The notes under the pieces were generated by a model, which saw only the letters and a program-made list of their open reading frames with translations, was not told the origin of the DNA and did not search any database. The position numbers and the translations under genes were made by a program. A DNA stretch of 64,000 bases from Minisyncoccota bacterium (GTDB taxonomy: Bacteria > Patescibacteriota > Minisyncoccia > Phycocordibacterales > UBA5272). The number at the start of each line of letters is the position of its first letter. Position 1 is the stretch's first letter. The stretch lies in the NCBI GenBank assembly GCA_046350775.1, contig JAXLZS010000001.1, forward strand, positions 545,838 through 609,837, in the 5' to 3' direction. This document shows positions 915 to 55,147 of the stretch, in pieces.

Positions 915-1076
915 TATTCAAAATGAGTTATCCACAATTGTCTTTTATAAAAGACTTGTCCTTTATAAAATTGTCGTTTATAATATATACATATAAGCAA
1001 GGGTCGCTCAACTTTATAGTTGGCGACTTTTGTTTTTATTCAAATCATCATTATTAATTTTATAAAAAAAAATATT

Positions 1077-10942: not shown

Positions 10943-11380
10943 ATGCCAACAATTAATCAGTTAATCAAAAATAAAAGAAGTAAAGTCGCTAGAAAATCGA
11001 GATCTTTGACTCTAGGACAAGGCTGGAATTCTGTAAAGAATAAAGCTAATTTTTACAATTCTCCTTTTAAAAGAGGGGTTTGTACAAAGGTGACAACTAC
11101 CACTCCAAAGAAGCCTAACTCAGCTCTTCGTAAGATTGCTAGAATTAGACTCACAAATCAGCAAGAAGTCACAGCTTATATTCCAGGAGAAAAGCACAAG
11201 CTTCAAGAGCACTCAGTGGTCATGATTCGCGGAGGAAGGGTAAAAGACCTAGCCGGAGTTAGATATCACATAGTGAGAGGAAGACTTGATGCTACAGGTG
11301 TAGAAAATAGAAAGCAAGGTCGCTCAAGATATGGCGCTAAAAAGCCAAAAGCAGGAGCTGTTACAGCTAAGAAAAAATAA
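10943..11380 (+). CDS. rpsL: 30S ribosomal protein S12, displaced to follow rplB, with a Lys-rich C-terminal tail.
   Basis: [12 protein letters not shown]...[13 protein letters not shown]...VRYHIVRG. Canonically S12 heads the str operon upstream of rpsG-fusA-tuf. Confidence 0.9.
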
Positions 11381-11524: not shown

Positions 11525-14500
11525 ATGAATGTAAAAAAAACCACGTTTAGTTATTTTATAGTATCGTTATTTTTGTTTTCTACTCTTTTTTCTGTGGTTG
11601 GAGCTAAGAATGATAATCTCTTAACAAGATGGGATCTATTTTCTATAAATATATATTGTAAAGTTAATAGTCTTTTTAATATTAATAATCCAAAGTGTGA
11701 CTACACCAATATTCCTAAACAAATATCTGATATACAAATTCAAATAGACAATTTACCTAAAGAAAATAATACTAAAATAGTATATACAGCGACTTCTGGA
11801 GTTCAGTATATATATATCAGAGGCCCTAAAGGTGACACAGGATTACAGGGTCCAAAAGGAGACACTGTGTATATAGGCGCCAATGGTGCCACAACTACAA
11901 GTTGGGCTGATATTTGGAATAGTACAAATAGCCGAGAAATAAAATATCAATATGTGCCAGTAGCTAGTGGAGGAGGTAATGGGATCAATGGCACAAATGG
12001 AACAAATGGTACCAATGGAAAAAATGGTAAGGACGGAAATTATATAACTTTAATCACTCAAAATTCTACAAGTACAACTTATTATATTTATGATCCTAAT
12101 ACGAATTCTACTTCTACAATAGTAGTGGCTAGTCCTTATATCTCTTCAAATTCTCCAGTCACAATAGAAAATGGAAATTCTTTATTTTCAACAGGATTGA
12201 CCGGCACAGGCAGTTCGTCTTTAGCTACAAATTCTGTCTTCTTAGGAGAGGATGCCGGCAATGGTGCAACCAACGCCTCTTATTCAAACTTCTTTGGTCC
12301 TAGTGCTGGCTCAGGTGCAACCAGTGCCTTCCAATCTAACTTTTTGGGATATAAGGCTGGCCATAATGCAACATACGCTTACGGTTCAAACTTCTTAGGC
12401 ACATATGCTGGCAATAGTGCAACTGGTGCTTTTTATTCAAATTTTATTGGACAAAATGCTGGACAAAATGCAGCATCTGCTTACTCTTCCAACTTTTTAG
12501 GAGAGGTTGCCGGCAATGGTGCCACCAACGCTGCCAACTCAATATTCATCGGAAGAAGTGCTGGTCAAAATGATACAGTAGATAATACAATCAACGGTCT
12601 CTCTTCTATACTCATAGGCTCATACACTAATACGGGAGGATATTCTAATTCTATATTACTCGGTAGTGGTACAAGTGGATCTCCAATCTCAAATACAAAA
12701 GCAAACCAATTCATGCTTGCTCCTTCTATCACAGAATTAAATCTAAGAGGAGTTAATTACACTTTGCCTTCTACTATCGGTGCAACAGGTACAGTCCTCA
12801 CAAATGATGGTAGTGGAGTACTCAGTTGGGGAGTGGGAGGGGGAGGTTTTGGTGGAGGAACAACAACCATAACCTCACTTATAACTGGTGTCGCTCCCAT
12901 ATATCAAGGAGTTATATTAGACGAGCATTTCACTGGATCTTCTTTAGATACTGATACATGGTCAGCAGAAACAACTCCTACAGGAGTAACTGTTAATAAT
13001 AAATTAATAGTCTCATCAGGACAATCAGACTGGAGTAGATATATGGAATTTAAAAAGCATTATCTTTATGAGAAAGAAGACATTATTTTCGACTTTAAGC
13101 CATTAACCAAGAATTCAGGAGATGCATGGGGAATTACTCAAAATAGTTTGCTTGTATTATATAATAGCTCAATATATTTAAAAGTAGATCTTTCTAATGG
13201 TGTAAATAGCGGTAGACTTTCTATAGGAAACACAACTGCCGCAAATGAATATGGATATTCACAAGCTTTAGATTTTAATGCTGGAGACAATTTAAGATTA
13301 ACTATAAAACGTACACCGTGGAAAACTATAACAATATTAGAAAATTTGACAGATTCATCAAAACCAAAAGCATATGGTGAGTTTGATTTAAGACAATGGG
13401 GAACTCAAGGCAATTATCGTATCTCTTTTTTGGGTGGACAGCAAGAATTTACAAATATAAAAATTGATTCTAAAGTAAGAAATTATGGAGGCACAAAAGG
13501 GGTAGTATTTTTTGGAGATTCTATAACTAATGGTATTGGGGCCACTTCTGTAAGTAAAAGATGGACGGATGTTTTAATGAAAGGGCAGCAGAATCTGTTT
13601 GAAAATATGGGTATAGGTTCTTGGTTAACTGGTACCATGAATTCATCTAGAGTGACAGAATTATTGACCGGAATAAATGCTAAGTATTTATTTATAAATT
13701 TTGGTTATAATGATTTTGCGCAATATACTCCAACTTCAACTTATAGGGCAAATCTAGAAACTATCGCTACCACAGCCCAAGCTATGGGGTATACAACAAT
13801 ATTCGTTTCTCCATTTCCTAATGCTACGTACGACAGTTCATCTTATGCATCAGCTATGCAGACAGCAGCTGCTAATACTGGTAGTAAATATATAAGTATT
13901 ATTAATGCTACTTCTATTGGTGGAGTAGCAAATCCTAACTATTTATATGATGGAGTTCATCCTAATGATGAGGGATATAGAGTTATCGCTGAAGAAATAA
14001 AAAAACAAATTCCAGAAGTTTACAGTGATATGGTAAACAATATAGATTCAGGAAGTATTAAGAGTTATGATATGCCATTTGCTTTTGGTAATGAGAGTAT
14101 AGTCACTGTCGGATCTGATGGTATATTTAGACAGGCTTTAGCAGAGCAGTTCATAACAAAGAATTCACTAAGATTACAATCTATAGCATACGAGACACAA
14201 GACGGCTCAGTATCTTTATCTGGTGATATCATTCAAGGGGGATCTTTTCAACAAAAAAGTAATAATGGATTAAGGATAGGCTTTAATAATGGAGCTTATG
14301 ATAATAACGGCTCAAATATAACAATAACAAATGCTGGTACAGGAGGATCTGGGCATCCTCAACTCTTCAATACTATAAATGGCACTGAAAATATTATAAT
14401 AAATGCTTTGGCTCAAGTAGGAAAAGCAAATGCTGCTGGCTCTGTTTCCGGAAATAGAAATTTATTATTACAGACACCAATACCAAATTCTTATGATCTA

Positions 14501-16015
14501 TCTGGCAGTAGAAATATATTGATGTCATCAACAAATTTTGCCTTAAATACAGGAAGTGATAATATTTTAATAGGAGATCAATCAGGAGGACTGTTAACTA
14601 GTGGTAGCTATAATATAGCTCTTACTAGTAGACTTAATTATAATGGAGGAAGTTCTAGTTGGTCTGCTAATAATGCGGTAGGTACTATTATGATAGGTAC
14701 TCCATATGATTATTCTGGAGAAGAGCCACTGTCAAATGGAGAGGTTGTCATATCTTCTTATACAAGGTTTCAAAGAATTTATACATTTGGTACAAAGGGA
14801 GGACTTCAAACTTCTGTTGTTTGGAGACCGGGATATCAAGGAGGCATAAACTCTGCTGGAGCACCTCTTTATATACAAGGTACAAGAGCGACAGGTAATG
14901 CTGAGCCTGGTAATATAGTATTTCAGTTCTCGACACCGGGATCATCAGGAAGTGCTGTGCAAGGTACTTTTAGTGATACTCTTACTTTGTCTAGAAACTC
15001 TATATTTGCAAATAAAAACGTTGGTATTTTACAATCAAATCCTTCCTATGCTTTGCATGTAGGATCCTCAAGTATATCTGATGGTGCTACATTATTAAGA
15101 TTGGAAGATATAAATAGTACTTGTGATTTTAACGCTAATTCTGGATCTCCATCTTGTGGATCTGATATCACTCTTAAAAAAGATATATCATCTCTAGATA
15201 CATCTGATATCTTAATTAAGATAGGCAAACTTACTCCAGTGTCTTATCATTGGAAAACTCAAAAAGATGATGATATCTTAAATTATGGATTTATAGCTCA
15301 AGATGTCGGTGCACAATTTCCAGATCTTGTACATGAGGGTACATGGGTTGATGGTAGTAAAAGACTATTTTTGAATACTGGTGGGCTTATGCCTTATGTG
15401 GTTGGAGCAATCAAAGAACTCAACAACAAAGCACTATTTGCTAGTGTAGGATCATCAACACTAGTAAACAATACTCTCCAGACTTCTCTAAATGATTTCT
15501 CTTTATTCATATCTACTCTCAATGATAACAATCTAGTATCTACAAATCTCACCAATCTCCACGATCTATTTTCAAGTTCTTCTCTCTCAGCTATCAAATC
15601 TTTAACTAACACTCTCACACAATCAGGATTTGATCTTAATCTAAATGGAAACGCTCTCACCAATGTTAAATCTATTCAGAGTATGAGTGGAAATTGGAGG
15701 GTGGGGGAGGATGGAAAAATAATAGCAAAGACAATAAGGGTAGAAGGAATAGAGTTAAAAGATATAGATGGAAATTGGTATTGTTATGGATCACAAAATG
15801 GAAATCTGGTAAAAATTGGTATTGCTCCATGCTCGGATTCTGATTTAAACAATCTTCAATTTTCAAATAATCAATCCCCATCTACTCCTATTTCTACGAC
15901 AGAGCCTACAAGTACTGCTACCACCACAAATCAAGATTTAGGTACATCTTCTCCAGTAGAAGCAGATCCTTCTTCTTTAGATCCTAACACTACACCCGTT
16001 TCTGATCTTGAATAA
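11525..16015 (+). CDS. Giant (1496 aa) secreted tail-spike-like protein: signal peptide, two collagen-like GXY tracts, 17-aa tandem repeats, a ConA-like lectin/glucanase-fold domain, an SGNH (GDSL) esterase domain, a beta-rich region, a C-terminal S74 intramolecular-chaperone domain and an S/T/P-rich tail.
   Basis: Signal peptide MNVKKTTFSYFIVSLFLFSTLFSVVGA. GPKGDTGLQGPKGDT (about 11823-11870) and GINGTNGTNGTNGKNGKDG (about 11985-12047). Repeats at about 12228-12575. DEHFTGSSLDTDTWS (about 12910-13470). SGNH blocks FFGDSITNG / GYND / DGVHPNDEGY (about 13480-14040). SDITLKKDI ... VSYHWKTQKDDDILNYGFIAQDVGAQFPDLV (about 15160-15330). Confidence 0.75.
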   Translation: MNVKKTTFSYFIVSLFLFSTLFSVVGAKNDNLLTRWDLFSINIYCKVNSLFNINNPKCDYTNIPKQISDIQIQIDNLPKENNTKIVYTATSGVQYIYIRGPKGDTGLQGPKGDTVYIGANGATTTSWADIWNSTNSREIKYQYVPVASGGGNGINGTNGTNGTNGKNGKDGNYITLITQNSTSTTYYIYDPNTNSTSTIVVASPYISSNSPVTIENGNSLFSTGLTGTGSSSLATNSVFLGEDAGNGATNASYSNFFGPSAGSGATSAFQSNFLGYKAGHNATYAYGSNFLGTYAGNSATGAFYSNFIGQNAGQNAASAYSSNFLGEVAGNGATNAANSIFIGRSAGQNDTVDNTINGLSSILIGSYTNTGGYSNSILLGSGTSGSPISNTKANQFMLAPSITELNLRGVNYTLPSTIGATGTVLTNDGSGVLSWGVGGGGFGGGTTTITSLITGVAPIYQGVILDEHFTGSSLDTDTWSAETTPTGVTVNNKLIVSSGQSDWSRYMEFKKHYLYEKEDIIFDFKPLTKNSGDAWGITQNSLLVLYNSSIYLKVDLSNGVNSGRLSIGNTTAANEYGYSQALDFNAGDNLRLTIKRTPWKTITILENLTDSSKPKAYGEFDLRQWGTQGNYRISFLGGQQEFTNIKIDSKVRNYGGTKGVVFFGDSITNGIGATSVSKRWTDVLMKGQQNLFENMGIGSWLTGTMNSSRVTELLTGINAKYLFINFGYNDFAQYTPTSTYRANLETIATTAQAMGYTTIFVSPFPNATYDSSSYASAMQTAAANTGSKYISIINATSIGGVANPNYLYDGVHPNDEGYRVIAEEIKKQIPEVYSDMVNNIDSGSIKSYDMPFAFGNESIVTVGSDGIFRQALAEQFITKNSLRLQSIAYETQDGSVSLSGDIIQGGSFQQKSNNGLRIGFNNGAYDNNGSNITITNAGTGGSGHPQLFNTINGTENIIINALAQVGKANAAGSVSGNRNLLLQTPIPNSYDLSGSRNILMSSTNFALNTGSDNILIGDQSGGLLTSGSYNIALTSRLNYNGGSSSWSANNAVGTIMIGTPYDYSGEEPLSNGEVVISSYTRFQRIYTFGTKGGLQTSVVWRPGYQGGINSAGAPLYIQGTRATGNAEPGNIVFQFSTPGSSGSAVQGTFSDTLTLSRNSIFANKNVGILQSNPSYALHVGSSSISDGATLLRLEDINSTCDFNANSGSPSCGSDITLKKDISSLDTSDILIKIGKLTPVSYHWKTQKDDDILNYGFIAQDVGAQFPDLVHEGTWVDGSKRLFLNTGGLMPYVVGAIKELNNKALFASVGSSTLVNNTLQTSLNDFSLFISTLNDNNLVSTNLTNLHDLFSSSSLSAIKSLTNTLTQSGFDLNLNGNALTNVKSIQSMSGNWRVGEDGKIIAKTIRVEGIELKDIDGNWYCYGSQNGNLVKIGIAPCSDSDLNNLQFSNNQSPSTPISTTEPTSTATTTNQDLGTSSPVEADPSSLDPNTTPVSDLE

Positions 16016-22193: not shown

Positions 22194-24338
22194 ATGTCTA
22201 GAGATTATCCATTAAATAAAGTTCGTAATTTTGGTGTGATTGCACATATTGATGCCGGAAAGACTACAACTTCTGAAAGAGTCCTCTTTTACACAGGTGT
22301 TTCTCACAAGATCGGTGAAGTTCATGAGGGTGAGGCTACAATGGACTGGATGGAGCAAGAAAGAGAAAGAGGTATCACAATTACTTCTGCTGCTACCACA
22401 GCTTTTTGGTCACCTACATATATGCCAAAGGGTGATGATTCAAAGAAATGTCGTTTTAATATTATCGACACTCCTGGTCACATTGACTTTACAATTGAAG
22501 TAAAGAGATCACTTCGTGTTCTCGATGGTGCGGTCGTAGTATTTGACTCTGTAGCAGGAGTAGAGCCTCAATCAGAGACAAACTGGAGATATGCAAACGA
22601 TGCTAATGTGCCACGTATTTGTTTTGTGAATAAATTAGACAGAATGGGAGGAAGTTATGACAAATCATATCAATCAATCCTAGACAGACTTTCTAAAAAA
22701 GCTGTCAGAATGCAAATCCCTGTAGGAGAAGAAGAAAATTTTTCTGCTATTATCGATCTTCTAAATCTTAAATATGTGACTTTTGTAGGAGATAAAGGAA
22801 AGGATGTTGTTTATGAAGATATTCCTGCTGAATTTGCAGAAATTGTAAAGACAAGACGTGCTGAAATGATTGAAAAGATTGTCGAGACAGATGAAAATAT
22901 GATGACAGCGTATCTTGAAGGAAAAGAATTTACAGTTGAAGAACTAAAAAATACAATCAGAAAAGCTGTGATTGCTAATGAGCTCTTCCCAGTATATTGC
23001 GGATCAGCTCTTAAAAATAAAGGAGTACAGCTCGTACTAGATGCGGTCGTTGATTTTCTACCATCACCACTCGATATTGCAAAGCCTCATGGTATTGATC
23101 CAAGAACAGGAGAAAAAATTGAATTAGAAGTTTCTGATACAGCTCCTCTTGCGGCTCTTGCTTTCAAGCTTGCTACTGACCCATTCGTAGGACAATTAGT
23201 ATTTATCCGTGTATATTCTGGTACTCTTGAGGCTGGATCATATATTTACAATGCTACAAAAGATAAAAAAGAAAGAATTGGACGTATTCTTCGTATGCAC
23301 GCAAACGATAGAGAAGAAGTAAAAACTGTCTATGCAGGAGAAATCGCTGCAGCGGTAGGTCTAAAAGATACAGTGACTTCAGACACACTTTGTAATGAAG
23401 ACAGTCCTGTAATTCTAGAAAAGATTGTGATCCCAGAATCTGTGATCTCTATGCGTATCGAGCCAAAAACAAAAGCTGATCAAGAAAAAATGGGTCTCGC
23501 TTTATCAAAGCTTGCTATCGAAGATCCTACATTCAGAGTATCTTCTGATCCAGAGACAAATGAGACAATTATCTCAGGAATGGGCGAGCTTCATCTTGAT
23601 ATTATCGTAGACAGAATGAAAAGAGAATTTAATGTAGAAGCTACAACAGGCAAGCCTCAAGTAGCCTACAAAGAGACAATCAAAGGTTCTGCTGATGGTG
23701 AAGGAAAATATATCAAGCAATCAGGAGGTCGTGGACAATATGGACATGTCAGACTAAAGATCAAGCCTATTGACTACACAATCAAAGATGAAGATCTTCC
23801 AAAAAATATCAAGAGATACGATCACTTTGAGTTTATCAACTCTATTAAAGGTGGAGCCATCCCTCAAGAATATATCCCAGCTGTAGAAAAAGGTCTTCGT
23901 GAGTCTATGGACAGAGGTACTCTTGCTGGATTCAAGATGGTGGATGTATCTTGTGAAGTTTATGATGGATCATTCCACGAAGTAGACTCATCAGAAATCG
24001 CTTTCAAGCTTGCAGCTGCAATGGCACTCCAAGATGCTGTATCACGCGCAAAGCCTGTGATTCTTGAGCCTATCATGAAAGTAGAAGTTATCACTCCAGA
24101 TAAGTTCTATGGAGACATTACAGGAAATCTTTCAAGTAAGCGTGGACAAATAGAAGGAATGGACGAAAGAGGAATGGATAAAGTTATCAGAGCAAAAGTT
24201 CCACTATCAGAAATGTTTGGATACATGACCAATCTTCGCTCTATGACAGAAGGTCGTGCATCGTTTACAATGGAGTTTTCACATTATGATGTCGTGCCAG
24301 CAAGTATAGCAAAAGAAATTCAGGATTCCAGAAAGTAA
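22194..24338 (+). CDS. fusA: Elongation factor G.
   Basis: [37 protein letters not shown]. 714 aa. Confidence 0.95.
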
Positions 24339-24406: not shown

Positions 24407-25387
24407 ATGCCTCCTTTTCCTCCTATTTTTGCTTATGTTTTTTTTGGATTTCTTTGGTTTATAGAGGTGATTTTTACTCTTTTTGTTGTTACTATACCAG
24501 CCAGTGAAGTCATTGCTATTTTTAGTGATATTTTGATCCTTTTGTGGCTATGGATGCGTCTTGGTCCATCACTGATAACAAAATTTAGAAATCCAAAAGC
24601 CAATAAAAAATTTATTAGAAGGTTTCTTACTCAGACTATAGGAGAACTTATACCAATAATAGATCTTTTTCCTTGGAATGTTTGGTTTATATATAAACAG
24701 TATAAGGATGAGGTAGCTGAATATCATAATAAAGTCGCAAAATTAGATGCTAAAAATCAAGAAATAGAAGAAAATAATAAAGATATAGAAGAGGGGGATA
24801 AAGAAATAAAAGAAGAAATAGAAAAGCAAAAATTACAAGAAAAAATTCAAGAAGAGATAGATTCAGATAATCAAGTGAGAGACATGAGGGCGGTATCCAA
24901 TTTTACTGGAGTAGGGCAATGGATGACAAGAAACAAAAGGGTCTCAGCTGGTAATCCTGATCTTGATCGACAAATAAATAATGCTAAAAGAAAAGAAAAG
25001 GAAGCAAGAATTAAAAAAGAAGATCTGCCGTATGAGATGAGACTCGGTGAACAGCTAGAGAATCCAGAATCATTGACTGACAAGCAGACTAATTATAGTA
25101 AATTTGAGACATATGAAGCTGAAAGAAAAAGATTGGAAGATATAAAAAAGCAAAAGATATTAGAGCAAAAAGAAAAAGATAAAGTCACACAAGTAAAAGT
25201 GAGACAGATGACTGAAGCTTTTGCTGATCAAAAAGCTAAAGAAGCAGAGAGAAAGTATGGTGAGTCTGCAAATCTTGTAGTAAGACTAAAAGATAGAGCC
25301 CAAAAAGCAAAAAGTGATCAAAATGGAGGTGACGGATTGATTGGTTTTAATGACGGAGAAGACCAAGAAATGGATATAGCAGCCTAG
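24407..25387 (+). CDS. Hypothetical membrane protein with a long charged coiled-coil-like C-terminal region.
   Basis: Two to three N-terminal TM helices, followed by a K/E-rich low-complexity region (KDIEEGDKEIKEEIEKQKLQEKIQEEID...). Confidence 0.5.
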   Translation: MPPFPPIFAYVFFGFLWFIEVIFTLFVVTIPASEVIAIFSDILILLWLWMRLGPSLITKFRNPKANKKFIRRFLTQTIGELIPIIDLFPWNVWFIYKQYKDEVAEYHNKVAKLDAKNQEIEENNKDIEEGDKEIKEEIEKQKLQEKIQEEIDSDNQVRDMRAVSNFTGVGQWMTRNKRVSAGNPDLDRQINNAKRKEKEARIKKEDLPYEMRLGEQLENPESLTDKQTNYSKFETYEAERKRLEDIKKQKILEQKEKDKVTQVKVRQMTEAFADQKAKEAERKYGESANLVVRLKDRAQKAKSDQNGGDGLIGFNDGEDQEMDIAA

Positions 25388-25492: not shown

Positions 25493-26209
25493 ATGAAAAA
25501 AATTTTCACAAAAATAATCACAGCTTACATTATCATAGCTTCACTCGCTATAGTTTTGAAAGTTGGTGATAATATGATCGCAAAAGCTGATGTTTTATCT
25601 TCACAAAATTGTGGATATAATACTGGCTGGATTTGGAACGGTACACAATGTGTAAATACTTGTGATCAAAATCATCCTTGGGATCCCGTAAATCAGAGAT
25701 GTTCTAATGGATATGGCTATTATGGTAATTCATACGGATATGTTCCTGGTAATTCAAATTATATGGGATCATGTGACGCATATGGAAGTAATTTTTACTG
25801 GACAGGATCTGTCTGTGCACAGATAGTACCAGGACAAAATTATCCTTATCAAGGATCAAATCCTTATAATGGTGGATATACTTATATAAATGATAATTAT
25901 AATTATTACAATTATCCAACATATCAAATTCAAAGTGTGCCTGTAAATAATACTGTCTACAATCTATCAAATAATTATCCTTACAATAATTACAATTATT
26001 GTGACAACTCTTGTTGGCATGATCCAGCACCAAAAGTCACTACTACTTATCAGGTCTATACTTATACTACTATTTCACAACCTAGCTATCCAAATTATTT
26101 CTATTTAGGATCAAATTCTAGTCAATATTACAATGATTATTTAGATTGTAATTATCTTGATTATAGAAATCTTGGTTACTATGATATTTACGGATACTAT
26201 CACTACTAA
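25493..26209 (+). CDS. Secreted Tyr/Asn/Gly-rich, Cys-containing low-complexity protein.
   Basis: Signal peptide MKKIFTKIITAYIIIASLAIVL. Repeated YNYYNYP/YGY motifs. About 12 Cys. Confidence 0.5.
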   Translation: MKKIFTKIITAYIIIASLAIVLKVGDNMIAKADVLSSQNCGYNTGWIWNGTQCVNTCDQNHPWDPVNQRCSNGYGYYGNSYGYVPGNSNYMGSCDAYGSNFYWTGSVCAQIVPGQNYPYQGSNPYNGGYTYINDNYNYYNYPTYQIQSVPVNNTVYNLSNNYPYNNYNYCDNSCWHDPAPKVTTTYQVYTYTTISQPSYPNYFYLGSNSSQYYNDYLDCNYLDYRNLGYYDIYGYYHY

Positions 26210-26229: not shown

Positions 26230-26263
26230 CAAACCTCTCTTTATAAAGAGAGGTTTGTTTTTT
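26230..26263 (+). terminator. Rho-independent terminator.
   Basis: caaacctctctt-tata-aagagaggtttgtttttt. Confidence 0.7.
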
Positions 26264-26293
26264 AATGATATAATATTCTTGATATAAATCATT

Positions 26294-29080
26294 ATGCCCG
26301 ATCAATTTTCTCAAGAAGTTGGAATAAATGGTAGCGAGCCACGCTTTTCTTCTCCGGAAGAAGAGATAAGATTTTTGCGTCAAGAGATAGAAAAAAGAAG
26401 AGATATAACCAAAAATTTTGGTGACAGAATCTCTAAAGAGGATCATGCTAGAGATGTCCTCAGAGCTCACGTATCACAACCTCCTCAGTCTGTTTTGCCT
26501 GGCCAGTATCAGATGCAAAATTATGAAAAGAAAAAACTACTTCAAGATCTAGAGGTAAAGTCTACTGACGAGCAAGTATCCGATCTTGTCTCTCTTATGC
26601 TTGATAAGGGTATACACAATACTATAGAAATAGTCAGGGAAAATAAAAATAAAGAAGTGGAATCAGATTTTCATCGCTTTCTCATAAATTATTTGCTGCT
26701 GCCTCATGAAGAAAAATTAGAAAAAAGTCTTAGCAAGACAGAATGGAAAGCTCTACATCTCAGACTCTACGAGATAGTGTTGCCAGAAAGCAAAGAAAAA
26801 GGTGAGACAAAAAATGCAAAAGAATTTATAGCTTTCATGGAGCAATTTTATGCCAGTATGTTAAGTATTTCTAGCGATATAAATAATAAAGAAAATAATT
26901 ATTATACTCTTGAGATTGCTAAACCAAATAATTCAAATGAAGTATCATTTTTTGTATCAGTTTTAAATGAAGTAGCAGATCTTTTTGAGAAGACACTTTT
27001 TGGTCTTTTTCCAGATGCGATAATCAGGTACTCAAAAGAAGACTATAATATTTTTTCTGAGACAGGATTTCAGCTTTCTGCTTATGCATCTCCGGTCAAG
27101 ACTTCCGCATTGCCATTTCGTACTTATGACAGTATGGAAGGGGATCCGATTTCTCTTATCATTTCAGCTTTTACAAAATTACAAAAGACAGGTGAGGGCG
27201 CAGCTCTTCAAATAGTCGTCCGCCCAGCAGGTGATAAGTTTTTCAAAAAATATTCTGAGATGGTCAATAGTCTTCGCAAAGGTGACACTTTAAAAAGAGT
27301 TTTAGATAGAGAGTCTTTTATAAAAGATTTTATTTCAACTTTTAAAGAATCAAATAAGTCAAAAGAAGAGATAGAAAAAGAAAAAGCAAAACCTAAAAAG
27401 ATAGAAGATGAAAAAGCTGAAAAAAATATAAGCAAAAAAATAGAATCTACCATACTAGATACAAATCTTCGTCTTGTGGTAAATGCTCCTGACCTCACTA
27501 GAGCCAAGAGTATTTTAAATGAGCTCGCCTCTACTTTTATGCAATATTCAGAAGCTGATGGAAACTCTCTTCAATTTAAGATGGTAGAAGGAAAAAGATT
27601 AAATGAAGTCATACATAATTATATTTATCGTTTTTGGGATGAAGATCAAAGTCTTCCTCTAAATTTTAAAGAATTGGCTACTTTTTATCATCTACCAAGC
27701 TATGTAAAAAATTATAATCAGCTCAATAAAGTCGATGCTACTTCTGCTCCAGCTCCGATGGATCTGCCACAGACAGGACTCTTTTTAGGTGTAAATGAAT
27801 ATAGACATCTAAAGACAGATATCTATTTGCCTGAGGCAGATAGACTTCGTCATATGTATATCATCGGTCAGACAGGTACAGGTAAGTCTGTCATGCTGGT
27901 CAACTCTATAATCCAAGATATTATAAATGGTCACGGTTGCTGCTTTATAGATCCGCATGGAGATGATATTTTAAAAATTTTAGGAAATATTCCAAAAGAA
28001 AGATGGGATGATGTGATCTATTTTGATCCTGCTGATACTGAGATGCCATTTGGTCTCAATATGCTTGAGTTTGATCCTATGAGGCCTGAGCAAAAGACAT
28101 TTGTGATCAATGAACTATTTTCTATCTTTAAAAAGCTTTTTGCTGAAGCTAGTCCAGAGTCTATGGGTCCAGCCTTTGAGCAGTATTTTAGAAATTCAGC
28201 AGCTCTTGTCATGGAGCATCCAGAGAGCGGTTGTACACTTTTTGATATTTCAAGAGTGCTTTCAGATGCTGATTATCGTGATTATAAATTGGCCCATTCC
28301 AAAAATCCTATTATCAATCAATTTTTCAAAAACGCTCTAGCTACAAGTGGTGAGCAAGGTTTTGAAAACTATGTGCCATACATCACGAATAAATTCGACA
28401 TCTTTACCTCAAATGAAATTATGCGTCCAATCATAGGACAGGAAAGATCTTCATTTAATATTAGTGAGATTATGGATAATAAAAAGATCCTTTTAGTAAA
28501 TCTATCAAAGGGTAGATTGGGTGATATTAATGCTTATTTGATTGGCCTCATACTTGTAGGAAAGTTTTTGATGGCAGCTTTAGGAAGAGAGGATTTAGAA
28601 AACAAGCCTCCATTTTATCTATATCTAGATGAATTCCAAAATGTAGCTACCAAATCCATCTCCGCTATTCTTTCTGAGGCGAGAAAGTATAAACTTTCTC
28701 TCATCATGGCTCATCAATATATCAAGCAGCTTCCAGAAGATATAAAAGGTGCGGTCTTTGGAAACGTCGGTAGTAAAATAGTATTTCGTATTTCAGAAGA
28801 TGATGCGAAAGCTCTCGAAGCCAGCTTTGCTCCGACCTTTACTTACACTGATATTATGAAGATAGCAACTTTTAATGCTTACGCTGCACTTCTCATAAAA
28901 GGATATCCTCAAAAGCCATTCAATATAAAAGAAGAATATTTTGCTGATAGGAGTATGCCTTATGCCCCAAAGCCAAATCCTGACACCATCAACGCCATAA
29001 AGATTTTGAGTAAAGAGAAATATGGTAGACCAAGAAGAGAAGTGGAAGATGAGATAATGAGGAAGTTTAGTTTTAATTAA
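26294..29080 (+). CDS. Large soluble P-loop ATPase of the TraG/TraD/VirD4 (type IV coupling protein) / HerA-FtsK superfamily.
   Basis: Walker A YIIGQTGTGKSVMLVNSI followed by DPHGDD. Walker B LYLDEFQNVAT. A SLIMAHQYIKQL motif. There is a 500-aa N-terminal region with no predicted TM helix. Confidence 0.6.
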   Translation: MPDQFSQEVGINGSEPRFSSPEEEIRFLRQEIEKRRDITKNFGDRISKEDHARDVLRAHVSQPPQSVLPGQYQMQNYEKKKLLQDLEVKSTDEQVSDLVSLMLDKGIHNTIEIVRENKNKEVESDFHRFLINYLLLPHEEKLEKSLSKTEWKALHLRLYEIVLPESKEKGETKNAKEFIAFMEQFYASMLSISSDINNKENNYYTLEIAKPNNSNEVSFFVSVLNEVADLFEKTLFGLFPDAIIRYSKEDYNIFSETGFQLSAYASPVKTSALPFRTYDSMEGDPISLIISAFTKLQKTGEGAALQIVVRPAGDKFFKKYSEMVNSLRKGDTLKRVLDRESFIKDFISTFKESNKSKEEIEKEKAKPKKIEDEKAEKNISKKIESTILDTNLRLVVNAPDLTRAKSILNELASTFMQYSEADGNSLQFKMVEGKRLNEVIHNYIYRFWDEDQSLPLNFKELATFYHLPSYVKNYNQLNKVDATSAPAPMDLPQTGLFLGVNEYRHLKTDIYLPEADRLRHMYIIGQTGTGKSVMLVNSIIQDIINGHGCCFIDPHGDDILKILGNIPKERWDDVIYFDPADTEMPFGLNMLEFDPMRPEQKTFVINELFSIFKKLFAEASPESMGPAFEQYFRNSAALVMEHPESGCTLFDISRVLSDADYRDYKLAHSKNPIINQFFKNALATSGEQGFENYVPYITNKFDIFTSNEIMRPIIGQERSSFNISEIMDNKKILLVNLSKGRLGDINAYLIGLILVGKFLMAALGREDLENKPPFYLYLDEFQNVATKSISAILSEARKYKLSLIMAHQYIKQLPEDIKGAVFGNVGSKIVFRISEDDAKALEASFAPTFTYTDIMKIATFNAYAALLIKGYPQKPFNIKEEYFADRSMPYAPKPNPDTINAIKILSKEKYGRPRREVEDEIMRKFSFN

Positions 29081-29082
29081 AA

Positions 29083-29448
29083 ATGAAAGAAAACGAACCT
29101 AAAAATAATTATAAAAAATTGTTTAACCTTTCAAGACAGTTAAGAAAAGACCAAACCAATTCGGAAGATATTGTTTGGTTTGCTTTAAGAAATAGAAAAA
29201 TATTTGATTTAAAATTTTCTAGACAAAAAATATTTGGTGAATTTATTGTAGATTTTTATTGTGCAAGACTAGGTCTTGTTTTAGAAATAGACGGAGAGAT
29301 ACACGAATCTCAAAAAGAGCATGATCAAGAAAGAGAAAATTATTTAATAAATAATTACAATTTAAAGATTTTGAGAATTAAAAATTCTGAAATTGATGAA
29401 TCGACAATATTTGAATTATTAGAAAATAAAATAAAGAAATACTTGTGA
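29083..29448 (+). CDS. DUF559 / Vsr-like PD-(D/E)xK endonuclease-fold protein.
   Basis: FSRQKIFGEFIVDFYCARLGLVLEIDGEIHE...LKILRIKNSEI matches the DUF559 pattern. Its start is 2 nt after the ATPase stop. Confidence 0.7.
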   Translation: MKENEPKNNYKKLFNLSRQLRKDQTNSEDIVWFALRNRKIFDLKFSRQKIFGEFIVDFYCARLGLVLEIDGEIHESQKEHDQERENYLINNYNLKILRIKNSEIDESTIFELLENKIKKYL

Positions 29449-29492
29449 GTATTTCTTTATTAATTTACTCACCCCAATATCTGCGATATTAC

Positions 29493-29533
29493 CCCTCTCT
29501 AAAAATATTTTCTAAAATATTTTTAGAGAGGGG
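29493..29533. terminator. Bidirectional terminator formed by a perfect 41-nt palindrome between convergent genes.
   Basis: cccctctctaaaaatatttt-c-taaaatatttttagagagggg. Confidence 0.7.
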
Positions 29534-29560: not shown

Positions 29561-30151
29561 TTATCTACTTGCTCTTTCTACGTATTCACCTGATTCTGTA
29601 TTTATTATAATATTGTCTCCTTCTTCGATAAATAGGGGAGCAGTGACTTGAGCTCCAGTCTCAAGAGTCACTAATTTTCCACTGGAGTTGCCAGCAGTAT
29701 TTCCTTTGATTGATGGAGGTGCTGAGGTGACTTTGAGAGATAGCTTTATTGGTAGACCAATACCGATAATTGTCTCTTCATCATCGTCGTCTGTAAATAT
29801 TTTTGCATCTACCACAGAATCAGCTTTCATAAATTTTATCTGATCACCGATCACTTCACTAGGAATAGTAAATCTTTTTGATGGATCTTTTATTTCGCAA
29901 AACCAATTTTCTCCTTTGTTGGTATAAAGATATTTTACTTCTTTTTTAGATATATCAGCCTCATCTACCATGTCAGAAGCATGAAATGTAGCAGGTATCA
30001 CTTTTCCATTAATCAAGTTTCTTAATTTTACTTGATTTTGTGGTTTTCTTTGTTGGGTTCTAGCCACATGGTACTCGAGCACCTCGTACGGTGCGTCATC
30101 ATAGATGATGAATTTTCTAGGTTTGATTTCATTATATTCTAGTTTTGCCAT
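29561..30151 (-). CDS. efp: Elongation factor P.
   Basis: 196 aa with an EF-P three-domain pattern (KFIIYDDAPYEVLEYHVARTQ...VKLRNLINGKV...). Confidence 0.8.
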   Translation of the reverse strand: MAKLEYNEIKPRKFIIYDDAPYEVLEYHVARTQQRKPQNQVKLRNLINGKVIPATFHASDMVDEADISKKEVKYLYTNKGENWFCEIKDPSKRFTIPSEVIGDQIKFMKADSVVDAKIFTDDDDEETIIGIGLPIKLSLKVTSAPPSIKGNTAGNSSGKLVTLETGAQVTAPLFIEEGDNIIINTESGEYVERASR

Positions 30152-33836: not shown

Positions 33837-34187
33837 ATGACAAGATCAGCAAAAAAAGGTCCATATGTGGATGAGAGAGTTTTGAAAAAAGTTCTCGGCA
33901 AAAAACCAGAAAATACTCCGGTTATTAAGACCTGGATTCGTTCATGTGTTATTTCACCAGAGATGGTTGGTTTTACTTTTGGTGTTTACAATGGTAAATC
34001 TCATATTGAATTTTTAGTATCAGAAGATATGGTCGGTCATAAATTGGGTGAATTTTCTCCAACACGTAAATTCGTGAGACACGGAGGAAAGATGCAAAAG
34101 GAAATCGATCAAAAAGCAAAGCAGTCTGAGATCGATGCAGCCAAGACAGCAAAAGCAGCCGCAGCTCCTGCCGCAAAGAAAAAATAA
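33837..34187 (+). CDS. rpsS: 30S ribosomal protein S19 with a Lys/Ala-rich C-terminal tail.
   Basis: [19 protein letters not shown]...[18 protein letters not shown]. Tail [16 protein letters not shown]. Confidence 0.9.
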
Positions 34188-40736: not shown

Positions 40737-43316
40737 ATGGCAAGTTCTCCTATTAAAAAAAATACAATAAAAGAAAAAAGAGATTTTTCTCCTATCAAAA
40801 AATATTTACGTGTTGTAAATTATTTATCAGCCGCACAGCTTTATCTCAAAGATAATTTCTTTTTAGAAAGAGAATTAAAAAGCGATGATATTAAAAATAG
40901 ACTACTTGGTCACTGGGGTGGAGCGACAGGTGTAAATTTTATATTAGCTCATTTAAATTTTTATTTAAAACAAAATCAAGTCAAAAATTCAAAGCTCCGA
41001 GATATTATGTTTGTGCTTGGTCCTGGACACGCTTTTCCAGCATTGCAAGCAAATTTATTCTTAGAAAAAACTCTTTCATATTATTTTGACAATAAGAATA
41101 ATTTGCAAAATAAATATTTAAAAAATATTTATGATTTTGATTTGTCTTATGACAAAGAAGGTCTTCAAAATATGATAAAAAATTTTGGCACACCTACTGG
41201 TTTTCCAACTCACGCTTCCCCAGTGACTCCTGGAGCGATACTAGAGGGTGGTGAGCTTGGATATTCTATTTCAAACGCATCAGGAGCTGTCATGGACAAC
41301 AAAGACTTGATAGCTGTCACAATTGTAGGTGATGGTGAGGCAGAGACAGCATCTCTAGCTACCAGCTGGCATGCATCTAAATTTATAAATAGTAAAGAAA
41401 ATGGAGTCGTACTGCCAATTCTTAATTTAAATGGATACAAGATCTCTGGTCCTACTATATTTGGTCGTATGAGTGATGATGAATTAAAAAGCCTTTTTAT
41501 TGGGCTTGGATATGAGCCACATATACTGGACGCTCGCAGTGATACAAATATTTTTGCTAACAAAGACAATCATAATCTCGAAAAAGACAATGTGCATATA
41601 TTGATGCAAGATATTTTAGATAAATCTTTTTCTAAAATATTGGAGATGAAAAAGACTGGCTCTACAAAAGGATTGCCAATGATTATTTTAAAAAGCGACA
41701 AAGGCTGGACAGGCCCAAAAATATTTAGAAAAATAAAAATAGAAGGAAATTGTGAGGCTCATCAAGTACCTTTTGCGAATTGTAAAGATGATAAAGAAGA
41801 ATTGAGAGTCCTCGAAGAGTGGCTACGAAGCTACAATATACAAGAATTGTTTTTAGAGAAGCCTGTCACAGCTGATAAAATTTTAAAGAAAAGACTAAAA
41901 GGTGAAGACTCTTTATTTGTGGAAGACATAGAAAATATGATACCTGAAAAGATGTGGAGACTCGGTATGAATTTACATGTTCAACAAAATGGCAAAGGTA
42001 GATTGAAAGAGCTAAAGTTGCCAGATCTCACAAAAGTCTTTAAAAATTCTATATTGAATTCCAATAAAGATTGGAGTAAACATTCACCAATGGATCTCAC
42101 CGGAGAATATTTAAAAGAAGTTTTTAAGTTAAATGAATCTACAAGAAATTTTAGATTTTTCTCTCCTGATGAGACATATTCAAATAAATTGAATTCTATA
42201 TTTGAAGAAGAATCTAGGGGCTGGACACAAGAGATAAAATCTTGGGATAAAGATCTATCTAAAAATGGTAGAGTGATAGAAATGCTCTCAGAAAATACTT
42301 TGGTAGGAATGATGATGGGATATATTTTGACTGGTAGACATGCATTTTTTGCGTCTTATGAGGCCTTCGTGCAAGTAGTAGCATCTATGGTTGATCAGTA
42401 TTTGAAGTTTTTACGCATAGCTCAAGAAGTGAATTGGCGTGGAGATGTTGGTGGGTTTAATATTATTTTGACTTCTCCTGGCTGGCTACAAGAGCATAAT
42501 GGGTACTCGCATCAAAATCCAGGATTTATAGATGATATGCTAATTAGAAATTCTAATTTAGTTGATATATATTTTCCAATCGATGCTGTAGCTACAGGAT
42601 TTGCACTTGAAGCCATGTGTAGATCGAAAAATAAGATAAATATATTGTGTGCTGGCAAAGATGATGCGAGACCAATATTTTTAGGAGAAATTGAAGCGAA
42701 AATAAATATGAGAGACGGTATGAGTTTTTTGAAAAACTATTCTGACAAACTAAAAGACAAAGAAAAATATGATTTGATAGTGTGTGGAGTGGGAGATTAT
42801 TTATCTTTAGAAGGTATAGCTGGTATCGATTTTATAAATCAAATATTTGATAGATCTGGTCTAAAATCTGAAAGAAAGAAAATTAATATTGGATTTTTAA
42901 ATATTTCAAAACTCACTAGTGCTGCACCAGACAGTAAAGATAGAAATAAATTTATTAAAAAATTGTCAGAATTGGTAGGGAACTCAAAAATCTTTGCTAA
43001 TTTTCATGGACATCCACAGACTCTAGAAAGATTCTTTTATGAAGCCGGAATTGAAAAAAGTAATTCTGAAGTGCGTGGATACATAGAAAGAGGTGGTATC
43101 ACTACACTTCTTGATATGCATATCTTAAACAAGACCAGTCGCTATCATGTGGCTAGCTGGATTACTGAAAGTCTTTTTGGGATAAAAAAGATAGACAAGA
43201 TGACTCGGGATTTCATTCAAAAAGAAATAAGAAGAGAAATGATGAGGGAAAAGTCATATATAAATCAAAATTTTAAAGATAGTGAGAAAATAAAAAATTG
43301 GGAATTTAATAAATAA
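40737..43316 (+). CDS. xfp: Xylulose-5-phosphate/fructose-6-phosphate phosphoketolase.
   Basis: GHWGGATGVNFILAHLN, EGGELGYSISNASGAVMDNKDLIAVTIVGDGEAET, NGYKISGPTIF. 859 aa. Confidence 0.88.
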   Translation: MASSPIKKNTIKEKRDFSPIKKYLRVVNYLSAAQLYLKDNFFLERELKSDDIKNRLLGHWGGATGVNFILAHLNFYLKQNQVKNSKLRDIMFVLGPGHAFPALQANLFLEKTLSYYFDNKNNLQNKYLKNIYDFDLSYDKEGLQNMIKNFGTPTGFPTHASPVTPGAILEGGELGYSISNASGAVMDNKDLIAVTIVGDGEAETASLATSWHASKFINSKENGVVLPILNLNGYKISGPTIFGRMSDDELKSLFIGLGYEPHILDARSDTNIFANKDNHNLEKDNVHILMQDILDKSFSKILEMKKTGSTKGLPMIILKSDKGWTGPKIFRKIKIEGNCEAHQVPFANCKDDKEELRVLEEWLRSYNIQELFLEKPVTADKILKKRLKGEDSLFVEDIENMIPEKMWRLGMNLHVQQNGKGRLKELKLPDLTKVFKNSILNSNKDWSKHSPMDLTGEYLKEVFKLNESTRNFRFFSPDETYSNKLNSIFEEESRGWTQEIKSWDKDLSKNGRVIEMLSENTLVGMMMGYILTGRHAFFASYEAFVQVVASMVDQYLKFLRIAQEVNWRGDVGGFNIILTSPGWLQEHNGYSHQNPGFIDDMLIRNSNLVDIYFPIDAVATGFALEAMCRSKNKINILCAGKDDARPIFLGEIEAKINMRDGMSFLKNYSDKLKDKEKYDLIVCGVGDYLSLEGIAGIDFINQIFDRSGLKSERKKINIGFLNISKLTSAAPDSKDRNKFIKKLSELVGNSKIFANFHGHPQTLERFFYEAGIEKSNSEVRGYIERGGITTLLDMHILNKTSRYHVASWITESLFGIKKIDKMTRDFIQKEIRREMMREKSYINQNFKDSEKIKNWEFNK

Positions 43317-43320
43317 AATT

Positions 43321-44472
43321 ATGAAAAAAAATGCTTCTCAAAAAATAATTTTAGTTTCAAATATCGGATCTGCTTCTAGAAAGTATTTTGTTTATAGTGT
43401 ATCTGGCTCTGATAAAAAAATAAAAGAGCTATTTAATATTCAGTTTGATGAAAAAGAATTCTATCCAAACATAAAATTGGAGGATGCTATTTTAGAATTT
43501 TTTGAAATAGCGAAAGAGAAATATGATCTAAAGATTGGAGACATCGATATTATCGCAGAGAGAGTGGTGGCTGTCGGGGAGTATTTTTTAGAAAATAGAC
43601 TAATAGATAAAAAATATTTTGAAGAATTGGAAAAAGCTAAAAAGTATGACGTACTCCACACCGAGAGCCTGATCAAAGAACTAGAAAAGCTCTTTCTAAT
43701 AAGAGAAGTTTGTTTTAAAAAGAAAATCAAATGTAAATTCAAGGTAGTCGGAATATCAGATTCTGAGTTTTATAATTCTATAGCAGAAGAGACTTATGCT
43801 TACGCTATAAAAGATTTTAAACCAGATCATAATTTTAGAAAATATGGATATCATGGCATCTCAATGAGTGAGGTCAATAATGTTGTTGGTAAAAAATATA
43901 AAAAGATTATAGCTGTACATCTTGGCGGCGGGGGATCTGTCACTGCGATAGAAAATAAAAAGGCGATATTTAATTCTTTTGGAATGACGCCGGTCTCGGG
44001 ATTGGTTAGTCTCACTAGAACAGGAGATCTTGATCCTTTTGTAGTTTTACATATTTATAATAAAAACAAAAAAAGCTTTTCTTTATTAGACAGTGGCGAT
44101 TACGCTTTTGATAAGACTAAAGAAGATATTTATGAGAAGTCTGGACTCTTTGCTCTGACTGGAGAAAAGGACATGAGGGATATTTTGATAAATCTTAATT
44201 CAAAAAATAAGATCGTAAAAGCGAAAAATACTTTTGCTATAGATGTCTATATAAATAGAATTAACGAATATGTGGGTTCTGCCTATGCTCATCTTAGTGG
44301 CTGCCAAGCTCTTGTCCTTACTGGATCAATATTAGAAAAATCAGAAATATTTAGAGAAAAATTGCTAAAAAAGGTATCTTGGCTTAATTTAAAAGAAAAA
44401 GATATTTTAATATTAAAAACTGAAGAAGAAAAGGAAATCGTCAGACTTCTAATAAAGGGTAAATTTATATAG
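43321..44472 (+). CDS. ackA: Acetate kinase.
   Basis: N-terminal KIILVSNIGSASRKY. HLGGGGSVTAIENKKAIFNSFGMTPVSGLVSLTRTGDLDP. Adjacent to xfp. Confidence 0.8.
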   Translation: MKKNASQKIILVSNIGSASRKYFVYSVSGSDKKIKELFNIQFDEKEFYPNIKLEDAILEFFEIAKEKYDLKIGDIDIIAERVVAVGEYFLENRLIDKKYFEELEKAKKYDVLHTESLIKELEKLFLIREVCFKKKIKCKFKVVGISDSEFYNSIAEETYAYAIKDFKPDHNFRKYGYHGISMSEVNNVVGKKYKKIIAVHLGGGGSVTAIENKKAIFNSFGMTPVSGLVSLTRTGDLDPFVVLHIYNKNKKSFSLLDSGDYAFDKTKEDIYEKSGLFALTGEKDMRDILINLNSKNKIVKAKNTFAIDVYINRINEYVGSAYAHLSGCQALVLTGSILEKSEIFREKLLKKVSWLNLKEKDILILKTEEEKEIVRLLIKGKFI

Positions 44473-53408: not shown

Positions 53409-53621
53409 TATTTAACTTAGCTAATAGGTTTTTATTTACTCTAATTTTTAAAATTAAGTATAAAAATACTTACTAGTTTGGGTGCGCTTTTTGTAAATAA
53501 AATATAGATTAACAGGAGCCTGTCTAACTCAATCAGACAGGTTCGCAACAACATAATGAATCTTCGAAAAGATTCAAAGCAAAGAATTTATACAAATTTC
53601 TTTTGCTCCGTTTTTATTTTT

Positions 53622-55147
<1,526 letters not shown>

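Follow-up and report, generated by a model that had tools for sequence, protein, structure and literature searches.

A conserved, anchor-less VirD4-class ATPase of Patescibacteria and an adjoining DUF559 gene with the distribution of a mobile insertion

A large part of bacterial diversity belongs to the Patescibacteria, many of whose core genes are without a known function. The window analysed here, a stretch of 64,000 nucleotides from a contig of a Minisyncoccota bacterium (JAXLZS010000001.1), is a segment of a Patescibacteria chromosome with a guanine-plus-cytosine (GC) content of 0.335, carrying ribosomal-protein genes, secY, map, fusA, efp and a 16S rRNA gene. Within it, a gene for a large P-loop ATPase is followed after 2 nt by a gene for a small nuclease-fold protein, and the question raised by this locus is whether the two constitute a functional module or are neighbours by accident. 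A first-pass annotation of the stretch had described both open reading frames (ORFs), their motifs, coordinates and 2-nt gap correctly, and had taken the pair for a translocation or defence module residing in a cargo region.

26294..29080, forward strand: ATPase ORF, 928 residues, ATG start, TAA stop at 29078-80; soluble ATPase of the type IV coupling protein (T4CP) class, DUF8128 family
29083..29448, forward strand: DUF559 ORF, 121 residues, ATG start at 29083; Vsr-fold PD-(D/E)xK endonuclease-like protein

The reading favoured here, with moderate confidence, is that two unrelated things adjoin at this site, namely a core T4CP-class motor, with a role that would be exapted and docked to a type IV secretion system (T4SS), and a homing-like insertion of a DUF559 gene. 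The apparent module of the window is read as an accident in which a small nuclease gene landed beside a core gene, and this serves as a caution for guilt-by-association calls, of the kind that an ATPase with a nuclease makes a module, in compact genomes.

Conservation and architecture of the ATPase

The ATPase is a vertically inherited, core chromosomal gene of Paceibacteria (Patescibacteria, or candidate phyla radiation, CPR). A total of 263 full-length homologues (approximately 900-930 residues) were found to share 46-81% identity with it over 95-100% of its length, all of them from Patescibacteria. When one genome per species was scanned, at least 589 species genomes were identified to encode a relative (41-81% identity), as were at least 581 metagenome contigs, and the N-terminal 482 residues alone matched 846 clusters at 50% identity. 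An identical protein (P0001, 100% identity), encoded on a 614-kb contig of Ca. Paceibacterota, bears the NCBI name ‘TraM recognition domain-containing protein’ and the domains PF26449 (DUF8128), PF10412 and PF12696. Homologues of the ATPase carry PF26449 together with PF10412 and/or PF12696, membership of PF26449 having been read from these precomputed domains of the homologues and not from a direct score of the window protein. The ratio of nonsynonymous to synonymous substitution (dN/dS) of the ATPase gene was 0.04-0.13, and its GC content (0.349) is close to that of the window.

A published survey reported 5,713 homologues of VirD4-type T4CPs in 2,918 of 3,035 Patescibacteria genomes (approximately 96%), exceeding the 2,417 genomes (80%) in which VirB4 was found (Quinonero-Coronel et al. 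2025, PMC12102498). The orphan homologues of that survey (PF26449), which are chromosomal, far from virB4 and near-universal, belong to the same family as the window ATPase. The family has already been catalogued in the literature, no paper mentioning DUF8128 was found, and nothing sets the window gene apart from its family. The survey does not describe the fold of the N-terminal domain, the lack of transmembrane segments, the synteny with the spc operon or the DUF559 insertions, all of which are described in the present analysis; new with respect to the literature are the apparently VirB4-N-like fold of the N-terminal domain and the homology to an anchor-less ATPase of the Bacillus plasmid pBM69.

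Clustering of approximately 1,300 flanking ORFs from 80 ATPase loci revealed a conserved context with the order rpsH-rplF-rplR-rpsE-rplO-secY-adk-(UMP-kinase-like)-map-ATPase-ndk-(CYTH)-(small membrane protein)-beta-CASP nuclease. Among these 80 loci map was a neighbour in 39, adk in 35, ndk in 34, secY in 31 and the beta-CASP nuclease in 30, and the ATPase gene was immediately preceded by map in 17 and immediately followed by ndk in 23. In most lineages the ATPase gene is found towards the distal end of the ribosomal spc operon (secY-adk-map-ATPase-ndk), and its ancestral position is directly after secY-adk-map. A conserved operon partner was sought among the same clusters and rejected, as they yielded housekeeping families only. 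An apparent fusion of map and the ATPase (a 1164-residue ORF, L002 2484-5978) proved to be artefactual, the public record having a masked stretch of N between both genes.

In the window the pair is situated between fusA (22194-24338) and rpsS (33837-34187), beside genes for secreted and membrane proteins; gene annotation bears out this part of the first-pass description. The order in the clade of the window is fusA, membrane and secreted protein genes, ATPase, efp (convergent), surface-protein genes and rpsS, and it was found to be inherited among relatives with 62-79% ATPase identity. The term cargo does not suit such a region, given the ancestral site of the ATPase gene after secY-adk-map, its GC content and the stable inheritance of the stretch within the clade.

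The motifs of a P-loop motor were located at residues 525-532 (Walker A, GQTGTGKS; nt 27866-27889), 553-558 (DPHGDD), 778-784 (Walker B, LDEFQNV; nt 28625-28645) and 806-808 (AHQ; nt 28709-28717), with residues G525-K531 and D779-E780 being invariant. No N-terminal transmembrane segment was identified, residues 1-744 being without a hydrophobic segment. The sole hydrophobic 19-mer (residues 745-765) corresponds to a helix within the ATPase domain just 5’ of Walker B (H744-763 in the model). An AlphaFold2 model built from an 81-sequence alignment (predicted local distance difference test score, pLDDT, 84.5) consists of soluble domains, namely a helical domain, an alpha/beta domain, a linker, a RecA-like domain and two C-terminal helices; a separate model of residues 1-482 also reached a pLDDT of 84.5.

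26351..26698, forward strand: all-helical N-terminal domain (residues 20-135), from the AlphaFold2 secondary structure
26759..27703, forward strand: alpha/beta domain (residues 156-470), core of Pfam DUF8128, with a modelled fold like that of the VirB4 N-domain
27746..28933, forward strand: RecA-like P-loop ATPase domain (residues 485-880), with an all-alpha insert at approximately residues 600-720

The helical and alpha/beta domains jointly make up Pfam DUF8128. The helical domain (residues 20-135) is missing from a class of proteins of approximately 790-840 residues that matched the query from about residue 150 in a search of representatives, and the alpha/beta domain contains a charged insert of low confidence at approximately residues 333-385.

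Residues ~500-840 matched the Pfam families TraG-D_C (28.7 bits, cut-off 22) and TrwB_AAD_bind (23.8 bits, cut-off 20.5), and DUF87 also exceeded its gathering cut-off, all three narrowly. Curated NCBIfam models of T4CPs (TraD, CD1115, MobC, CedD) reached no more than 45 bits (cut-off 366) and that of HerA 15.6 bits (cut-off 970), and neither an FtsK gamma domain nor a HerA HAS-barrel gave a signal in the Pfam and NCBIfam scans. Sequence and profile searches of the PDB returned TrwB and DotL only, around Walker A. Foldseek with the whole model placed TrwK/VirB4 first (E 5.7e-14, ~900 columns, with a low template modelling score, TM score, of 0.3), followed by HerA (4d2i, 9x1m), TrwB (TM score 0.6, ~425 columns), DotL, Cag-beta and DndH-C. 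These Pfam matches and the TM score of TrwB uphold the first-pass assignment of a TraG/VirD4-type motor of the FtsK-HerA superfamily without a transmembrane anchor. With TrwB, VirD4, TraG and DotL (PDB 1e9r, 6sz9, 8dol) the window ATPase has in common the Walker A/B motor with its all-alpha insert; it differs from them in having a soluble N-terminal region of 480 residues in place of the transmembrane domain, and no linked relaxase or T4SS.

The N-terminal region of about 500 residues, which had been called uncharacterised, can be refined. Foldseek with the model of residues 1-482 returned 14 chains of TrwK/VirB4 only (E 6e-6 to 1e-3, with a modest TM score of 0.33), the next match (E 0.015) being noise. 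At the level of sequence profiles no VirB4 link was identified, as hhalign against the VirB4 of pBM69 gave a probability of 1.9 and a PDB profile search returned nothing, and a match to Pfam AAA_10 or CagE_TrbE_VirB is absent from the ATPase. The N-terminus appears to be VirB4-N-domain-like in its modelled fold, the link being one of fold and not of sequence. The soluble, two-domain architecture of approximately 800-900 residues is likewise found in VirB4/TrwK (PDB 7o42, 7o43, 8rtd), from which the window ATPase differs in lacking profile similarity and the CagE/AAA_10 match, and to which its TM scores are low (0.3).

A tblastn search against plasmids gave 607 records, from Bacillus, Streptomyces, Clostridium, haloarchaea and Sulfolobus. 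On plasmid pBM69 of Bacillus methanolicus an 833-residue ‘DUF87 domain-containing protein’ (WP_003349917.1) is encoded between primase-C and Replic_Relax genes, with conjugal transfer genes and an AAA_10 VirB4 downstream of it. Alignment of the family profile to this protein with hhalign gave a probability of 99.8 (E 2e-29, 643 columns, ~27% identity) and spanned query residues 200-893 and template residues 54-733, thus covering both the motor and the alpha/beta domain (template residues 54-330). The pBM69 protein was found to have no transmembrane segment and to show signals of DUF87 and TrwB_AAD_bind. Because of its position beside the Replic_Relax gene we infer that it is the coupling protein of that plasmid, its annotation being ‘DUF87’ only. 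It shares with the window ATPase the homology of both domains and the absence of transmembrane segments, and differs in being plasmid-borne, beside Replic_Relax, conjugal transfer and AAA_10 VirB4 genes, and in lacking the helical domain of residues 20-135. The window ATPase is a chromosomal, Paceibacteria member of this two-domain, anchor-less family, with an extra helical N-terminal domain.

Outside the CPR, the closest relatives of the ATPase domain were alphaproteobacterial ‘T4SS DNA-binding domain’ proteins of approximately 700 residues without transmembrane segments (32% identity, E 4e-54). One of these, on a Bradyrhizobium plasmid (L089, NZ_CP064708.1, 6104-8230), lies among CHAT-protease and TPR genes in a conflict-system-like setting that is unlike the CPR context.

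The DUF559 gene and its insertion pattern

The product of the second gene matched Pfam PF04480 (E 2.8e-26) and PDB 3hrl (E 3.4e-10), which supports its first-pass identification as a DUF559/Vsr-fold protein. The core DFYC...E(I/L)DG..H...R was kept in all DUF559 copies examined, with the D, E-x-D, H and R columns present in 7 copies, and the protein is predicted from its sequence to be endonuclease-like in activity. It can be likened to the E. coli PRK09767 family (PDB 3hrl) and to a related homing endonuclease (PDB 3r3p), and Vsr, DUF559 and a group I intron homing endonuclease have been placed in one PD-(D/E)xK cluster (PMC3424549). The window gene differs from Vsr in having no adjacent cytosine methyltransferase, although one would be expected with a Vsr repair role, and from the intron homing endonucleases in being free-standing and not intron-encoded. 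Its GC content is 0.232, compared to 0.349 in the ATPase gene and 0.335 in the window, as would suit a gene of foreign origin or one that was recently mobile.

An unbiased sample of 160 loci was picked by the ATPase alone, and its 1.93 Mb of flanks were searched with a DUF559 hidden Markov model. Five DUF559 genes were identified, four of which adjoin the ATPase gene (4/160).

L011: DUF559 gene downstream of the ATPase, same strand
L101: DUF559 gene downstream of the ATPase, same strand
L136: DUF559 gene downstream of the ATPase, opposite strand
L029: DUF559 gene upstream, between map and the ATPase, opposite strand
L112: DUF559 domain 1.8 kb downstream of the ATPase

The conserved ATPase-nuclease module foreseen in the first-pass annotation is not borne out by this distribution, in which orientation varies and pairing is rare. 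In the relatives whose ATPases are 79%, 69% and 62% identical to that of the window, efp directly follows the ATPase gene, with 42-72 nt from the ATPase stop to the convergent efp stop and a small hairpin only. Linkage of DUF559 genes to the ATPase in related genomes is essentially not conserved, an outcome that the first-pass annotation had itself named as speaking against its reading, with the caveat that the few copies present are clustered: of the five found, four are no more than 400 nt away from the ATPase gene, where 8.6% would be expected by chance (P ~3e-4). Such non-random adjacency suggests an insertion hot spot or homing.

Copies beside closely related ATPases were found to be discordant with their hosts, the ATPases being 77-90% identical and the DUF559 copies 37-50%. 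The ATPases of L011 and L101 share 77% identity and their DUF559 products 38%; for L101 and L136 the values are 89.5% and 50%, with opposite orientation of the nuclease gene; and for the window and L081 they are 79% and 53%, the L081 copy being 2.7 kb off and on the other strand. In close relatives of L101 and L136 that are free of DUF559, ndk starts 48-59 nt after the ATPase gene, and the ATPase-ndk spacers of L101 and L136 themselves hold differing inserts of 0.8-1.5 kb.

In L112 (9563-11221) the DUF559 domain (residues 251-355 of a stop-free frame of 553 residues) lies in frame within tgt, encoding queuine tRNA-ribosyltransferase (TGT). The insert is a 146-residue segment with DUF559, situated between residues 222 and 228 of an uninterrupted TGT homologue, and no Hint/intein domain was detected in this frame. 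Elsewhere in bacteria, DUF559 genes were found to split oppB/oppC or to follow dnaE or tatD.

The closest homologues of the window DUF559 protein (59-66% identity) are encoded in four related genomes (L086-L088, L172), in every case 3’ of the gene for a DUF8128 ATPase. Including the window, five genomes keep DUF559 3’ of the ATPase gene, immediately in four and with one gene between in L172. Even within this subclade the translational coupling proposed by the first-pass annotation is not conserved, as the gap is 2 nt in the window and 5, 16 or 22 nt, or a whole 202-residue gene (L172), in the others. In the subclade DUF559 co-diverges with the ATPase and has a dN/dS of 0.11-0.32, indicative of purifying selection; judged by these sequences it is a functional gene that was acquired once in that lineage. 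It is kept under purifying selection between the ATPase gene and efp, but its pairing with the ATPase is not obligate. A history in which DUF559 was passed on vertically from an ancestor and then lost many times was considered and rejected for the family as a whole, the identities being discordant, and accepted within the subclade of the window, L086-L088 and L172.

The DUF559 genes show sporadic occurrence beside a conserved gene and a phylogeny discordant with that of the host gene, which is the pattern of free-standing homing-type endonuclease genes. The simplest reading of the DUF559 gene is that it is a mobile, possibly homing-type endonuclease gene favouring the flanks of the ATPase gene. 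Such genes would have landed repeatedly at these flanks as homing-like insertions, and that of the window would have been inserted into the ATPase-efp spacer in one subclade.

Possible role of the ATPase and competing explanations

Like other FtsK-HerA/VirD4-class motors, the ATPase would form a ring driven by ATP, and this ring may feed a macromolecular substrate to an envelope channel. Canonical T4CPs such as TrwB, PcfC and MobB need their N-terminal transmembrane domain for function (PMC7431656); in the window ATPase the VirB4-like N-terminal domain would replace the transmembrane helices and dock the motor to membrane partners. The channel would most plausibly be the monoderm-type T4SS of Patescibacteria, which have a separate, bona fide VirB4 near dnaA (PMC12102498). 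Since relaxases are almost absent in the phylum, with 109 found in 103 genomes (PMC12102498), the substrate would probably be other than relaxase-piloted plasmid DNA and the role exapted; in the words of the authors of that survey, exaptation ‘cannot be ruled out’ (PMC12102498). The 64-kb window was found to contain neither VirB nor relaxase genes. For the few cultivable strains, experimental handles are provided by the absence of an anchor, the VirB4-like putative docking domain and the sharing of both domains with a Bacillus plasmid ATPase.

A number of points weigh against a T4SS-docked motor beside an unrelated insertion. Only 148 of the 5,713 T4CP homologues are near virB4 (PMC12102498), and no T4SS-type family was present among the conserved neighbour families of the 80 ATPase loci. 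Some carriers of the homologue may be without a T4SS, because the genomes with a T4CP homologue (2,918) outnumber those with VirB4 (2,417). In Southlakia the T4CP homologue was found to be dispensable and the T4SS essential (PMC12102498), and that essential T4SS cluster has been described as having neither a coupling protein nor a relaxase that could be recognized (Wang et al. 2023). The docking partner and the substrate are moreover parts of the mechanism that we infer. As for the nuclease gene, its co-divergence with the ATPase under purifying selection in the subclade and its clustering at the ATPase locus sit uneasily with a mere insertion, and a facultative functional tie between the ATPase and DUF559 is accordingly granted a small probability.

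The foremost rival to the T4SS-docked motor, to which we give a low but appreciable probability, is a T4SS-independent housekeeping translocase of nucleic acids, acting like a soluble FtsK/SftA in the segregation of chromosomes or the resolution of dimers, or in the handling of imported DNA or RNA for nucleotide salvage. This would be in keeping with T4CP homologues being near-universal (96% compared to 80% for VirB4) and away from virB4 (PMC12102498), with the strong conservation of the ATPase, with a motor of the FtsK-HerA superfamily and with neighbours that include adk, UMP-kinase-like, ndk, CYTH, SLOG, HD and beta-CASP nuclease genes at the tail of the spc operon. However, adk and map are standard genes of the spc operon, so the neighbourhood may be plain synteny, the closest full two-domain matches outside the CPR are proteins of plasmid conjugation clusters, and the ATPase lacks the FtsK gamma and HerA HAS-barrel signals. 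A further variant, in which the ATPase is an exapted, T4SS-independent translocase that would serve a scavenging lifestyle, handling DNA that is imported or chromosomal and feeding nucleotide salvage beside adk, ndk and the UMP-kinase-like gene, with DUF559 nucleases as exchangeable, facultative partners, is regarded as distinctly improbable.

A functional module of translocase and nuclease after all, in which the ATPase and DUF559 would work together like HerA-NurA or a HerA-effector defence pair, with a ring threading DNA to the nuclease in DNA processing or against phages, is considered improbable. The window itself invites this explanation by its 2-nt gap and by the promoter-like and terminator-like bounds of the pair, and so do the enrichment of DUF559 at the ATPase locus and its retention under purifying selection downstream of the ATPase in five related genomes. 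PADLOC also gave weak matches, of the ATPase to mad8 (E 1.8e-14) and HerA, and of DUF559 to mREase_II, DpdF and PDC-S69. Yet the pairing occurs in approximately 3% of unbiased loci, its side and orientation vary (the antisense copy of L029 is upstream, that of L136 downstream), the spacing ranges from 2 nt to a whole gene, adjacent DUF559 copies of close hosts are merely 37-50% identical, the relatives at 79%, 69% and 62% are without DUF559 at this site, and other DUF559 copies lie within the tgt reading frame or in unrelated settings. A likeness to HerA-NurA and HerA-effector systems and to the mad8 of MADS exists in that an ATPase of the FtsK-HerA superfamily stands beside a nuclease-fold gene; the nuclease of the window pair is of the Vsr fold, not NurA, Sir2 or DUF4297, its pairing is unconserved, and there is no island context. 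A defence system, as suggested by the first-pass annotation, was rejected on the grounds of core-gene synteny: the PADLOC hits are isolated, single-protein hits, the four neighbouring proteins gave none, and the ATPase is not an island gene but syntenic in a housekeeping context across hundreds of species.

The fusA-rpsS stretch could also be viewed as the remnant of an integrated conjugative or mobile element, with the ATPase its leftover coupling protein. The T4CP-like ATPase domain, the plasmid location of the relatives outside the CPR and the scrambled ribosomal cluster of the window, with surface-protein genes interposed, would agree with such an origin. Integrase, relaxase and VirB genes are nevertheless all absent from the window, the GC content of the ATPase gene equals that of the genome, the same housekeeping locus is seen in hundreds of species at 41-52% identity, and the order fusA-...-ATPase-efp-...-rpsS is inherited within the clade. 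This explanation is already contradicted by synteny and is held to be extremely improbable.

Layout of the locus, the structured repeat and other features of the window

The following features flank the ATPase and DUF559 genes.

25493..26209, forward strand: gene for a Tyr/Asn/Cys-rich protein with a signal peptide, upstream of the ATPase; no known family
26230..26257, forward strand: terminator-like hairpin (12 bp stem, 4-nt loop, then TTTTTT), from a terminator scan
26266..26274, forward strand: extended -10 promoter-like motif TGATATAAT, 19 nt 5’ of the ATPase ATG, read from the sequence
29430..29461, unstranded: perfect 14-bp hairpin with a 4-nt loop, spanning the DUF559 stop codon
29462..29566, forward strand: structured repeat of ~100 nt forming a three-way junction (RNA minimum free energy -60.9 kcal/mol, z = -10.5)
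29561..30151, reverse strand: efp (elongation factor P), convergent; conserved downstream anchor of the ATPase gene within the clade of the window

The hairpin and T-run at 26230-26257, called by the scan as a Rho-independent terminator, marks the end of the secreted-protein gene 25493-26209 and sets it apart from that of the ATPase. The promoter-like motif was not among the features listed by the same scan; its position suggests that the ATPase and DUF559 genes are a predicted transcription unit of their own with a very short leader.

A homologue of the secreted-protein gene is situated directly 5’ of the ATPase gene in L081, L082, L086-L088 and L172 and was matched in L001, with weak fragment matches only, 2.8 kb upstream, in L084/L085. 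The preceding gene (24407-25387) encodes a membrane protein with N-terminal transmembrane helices and a long, highly charged Lys/Glu-rich tail, for which no family match was identified. Both upstream genes are conserved solely inside the clade of the window, and their products could be envelope partners of the ATPase or mere syntenic surface proteins.

Behind the DUF559 gene the first-pass annotation had placed a perfect 41-nt palindromic terminator. The palindrome is indeed perfect and measures 42 nt (20+2+20, 29492-29533), starting 44 nt 3’ of the DUF559 stop; a plain terminator it is not, as no T-run follows 29533 and the scan made no call there. It constitutes the central arm of the three-way junction, an element that extends to the efp stop codon with slight overlap. 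The stems of the element were found to be identical in L086, L087, L088 and L172, right after DUF559, with synonymous sites near saturation (dS 0.9-2.1). Copies were sought with a covariance model (R1), and near-identical ones were located at L086 6380-6480, L087 645-744, 6379-6479 and 7070-7172, L088 5640-5740 and L172 5376-5406. Of the further copies in L087, one is in the spacer downstream of fusA, one lies beyond efp and has a third hairpin with compensatory changes, and a weak one is situated between two upstream genes. Among the other 160-odd loci the model gave no clear copies and four weak or partial matches (17-21 bits). As candidates for a known RNA, Rfam yielded sub-threshold hairpin look-alikes only and ARAGORN no tRNA at this position. 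The element is a clade-specific, dispersed structured repeat that resembles repetitive extragenic palindromes (REP) and miniature inverted-repeat transposable elements (MITE), and it may well stop transcription from both strands. Together with the repeated DUF559 insertions and the in-frame insertion in tgt, this sequence-invariant repeat may inform on the spread of selfish DNA in naturally competent, reduced genomes.

The ribosomal supercluster of the window (6577-37346) was found to be scrambled. The order tuf-S10-L3-L4-L2 is followed by S12 (10943-11380, apart from S7) and a 1496-residue surface protein, then by S8-L6-L18-S5-L15-secY-map, an unknown protein of 137 residues, S7-fusA, the ATPase block with efp, and S19-L22-S3-L16...L5. 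Three ORFs (186-914, 1020-4574 and 11525-16015) encode very large predicted surface proteins with the Peptidase_S74 ‘chaperone of endosialidase’ domain that is typical of phage tail fibres. That of 1496 residues, whose gene interrupts the ribosomal cluster midway, additionally carries a GDSL lipase domain and weakly matches a phage connector.

Within 53615-57933, no 23S gene was identified after the 16S rRNA gene in the remaining 9 kb, so that the rRNA operon appears to be unlinked, and four ORFs (55487-57808) separate the 16S rRNA gene from tRNA-Ile(GAT). Beside recG, a phosphoketolase (XFP) gene is directly followed by that of acetate kinase (40737-44472), forming a compact, ATP-yielding fermentative pair.

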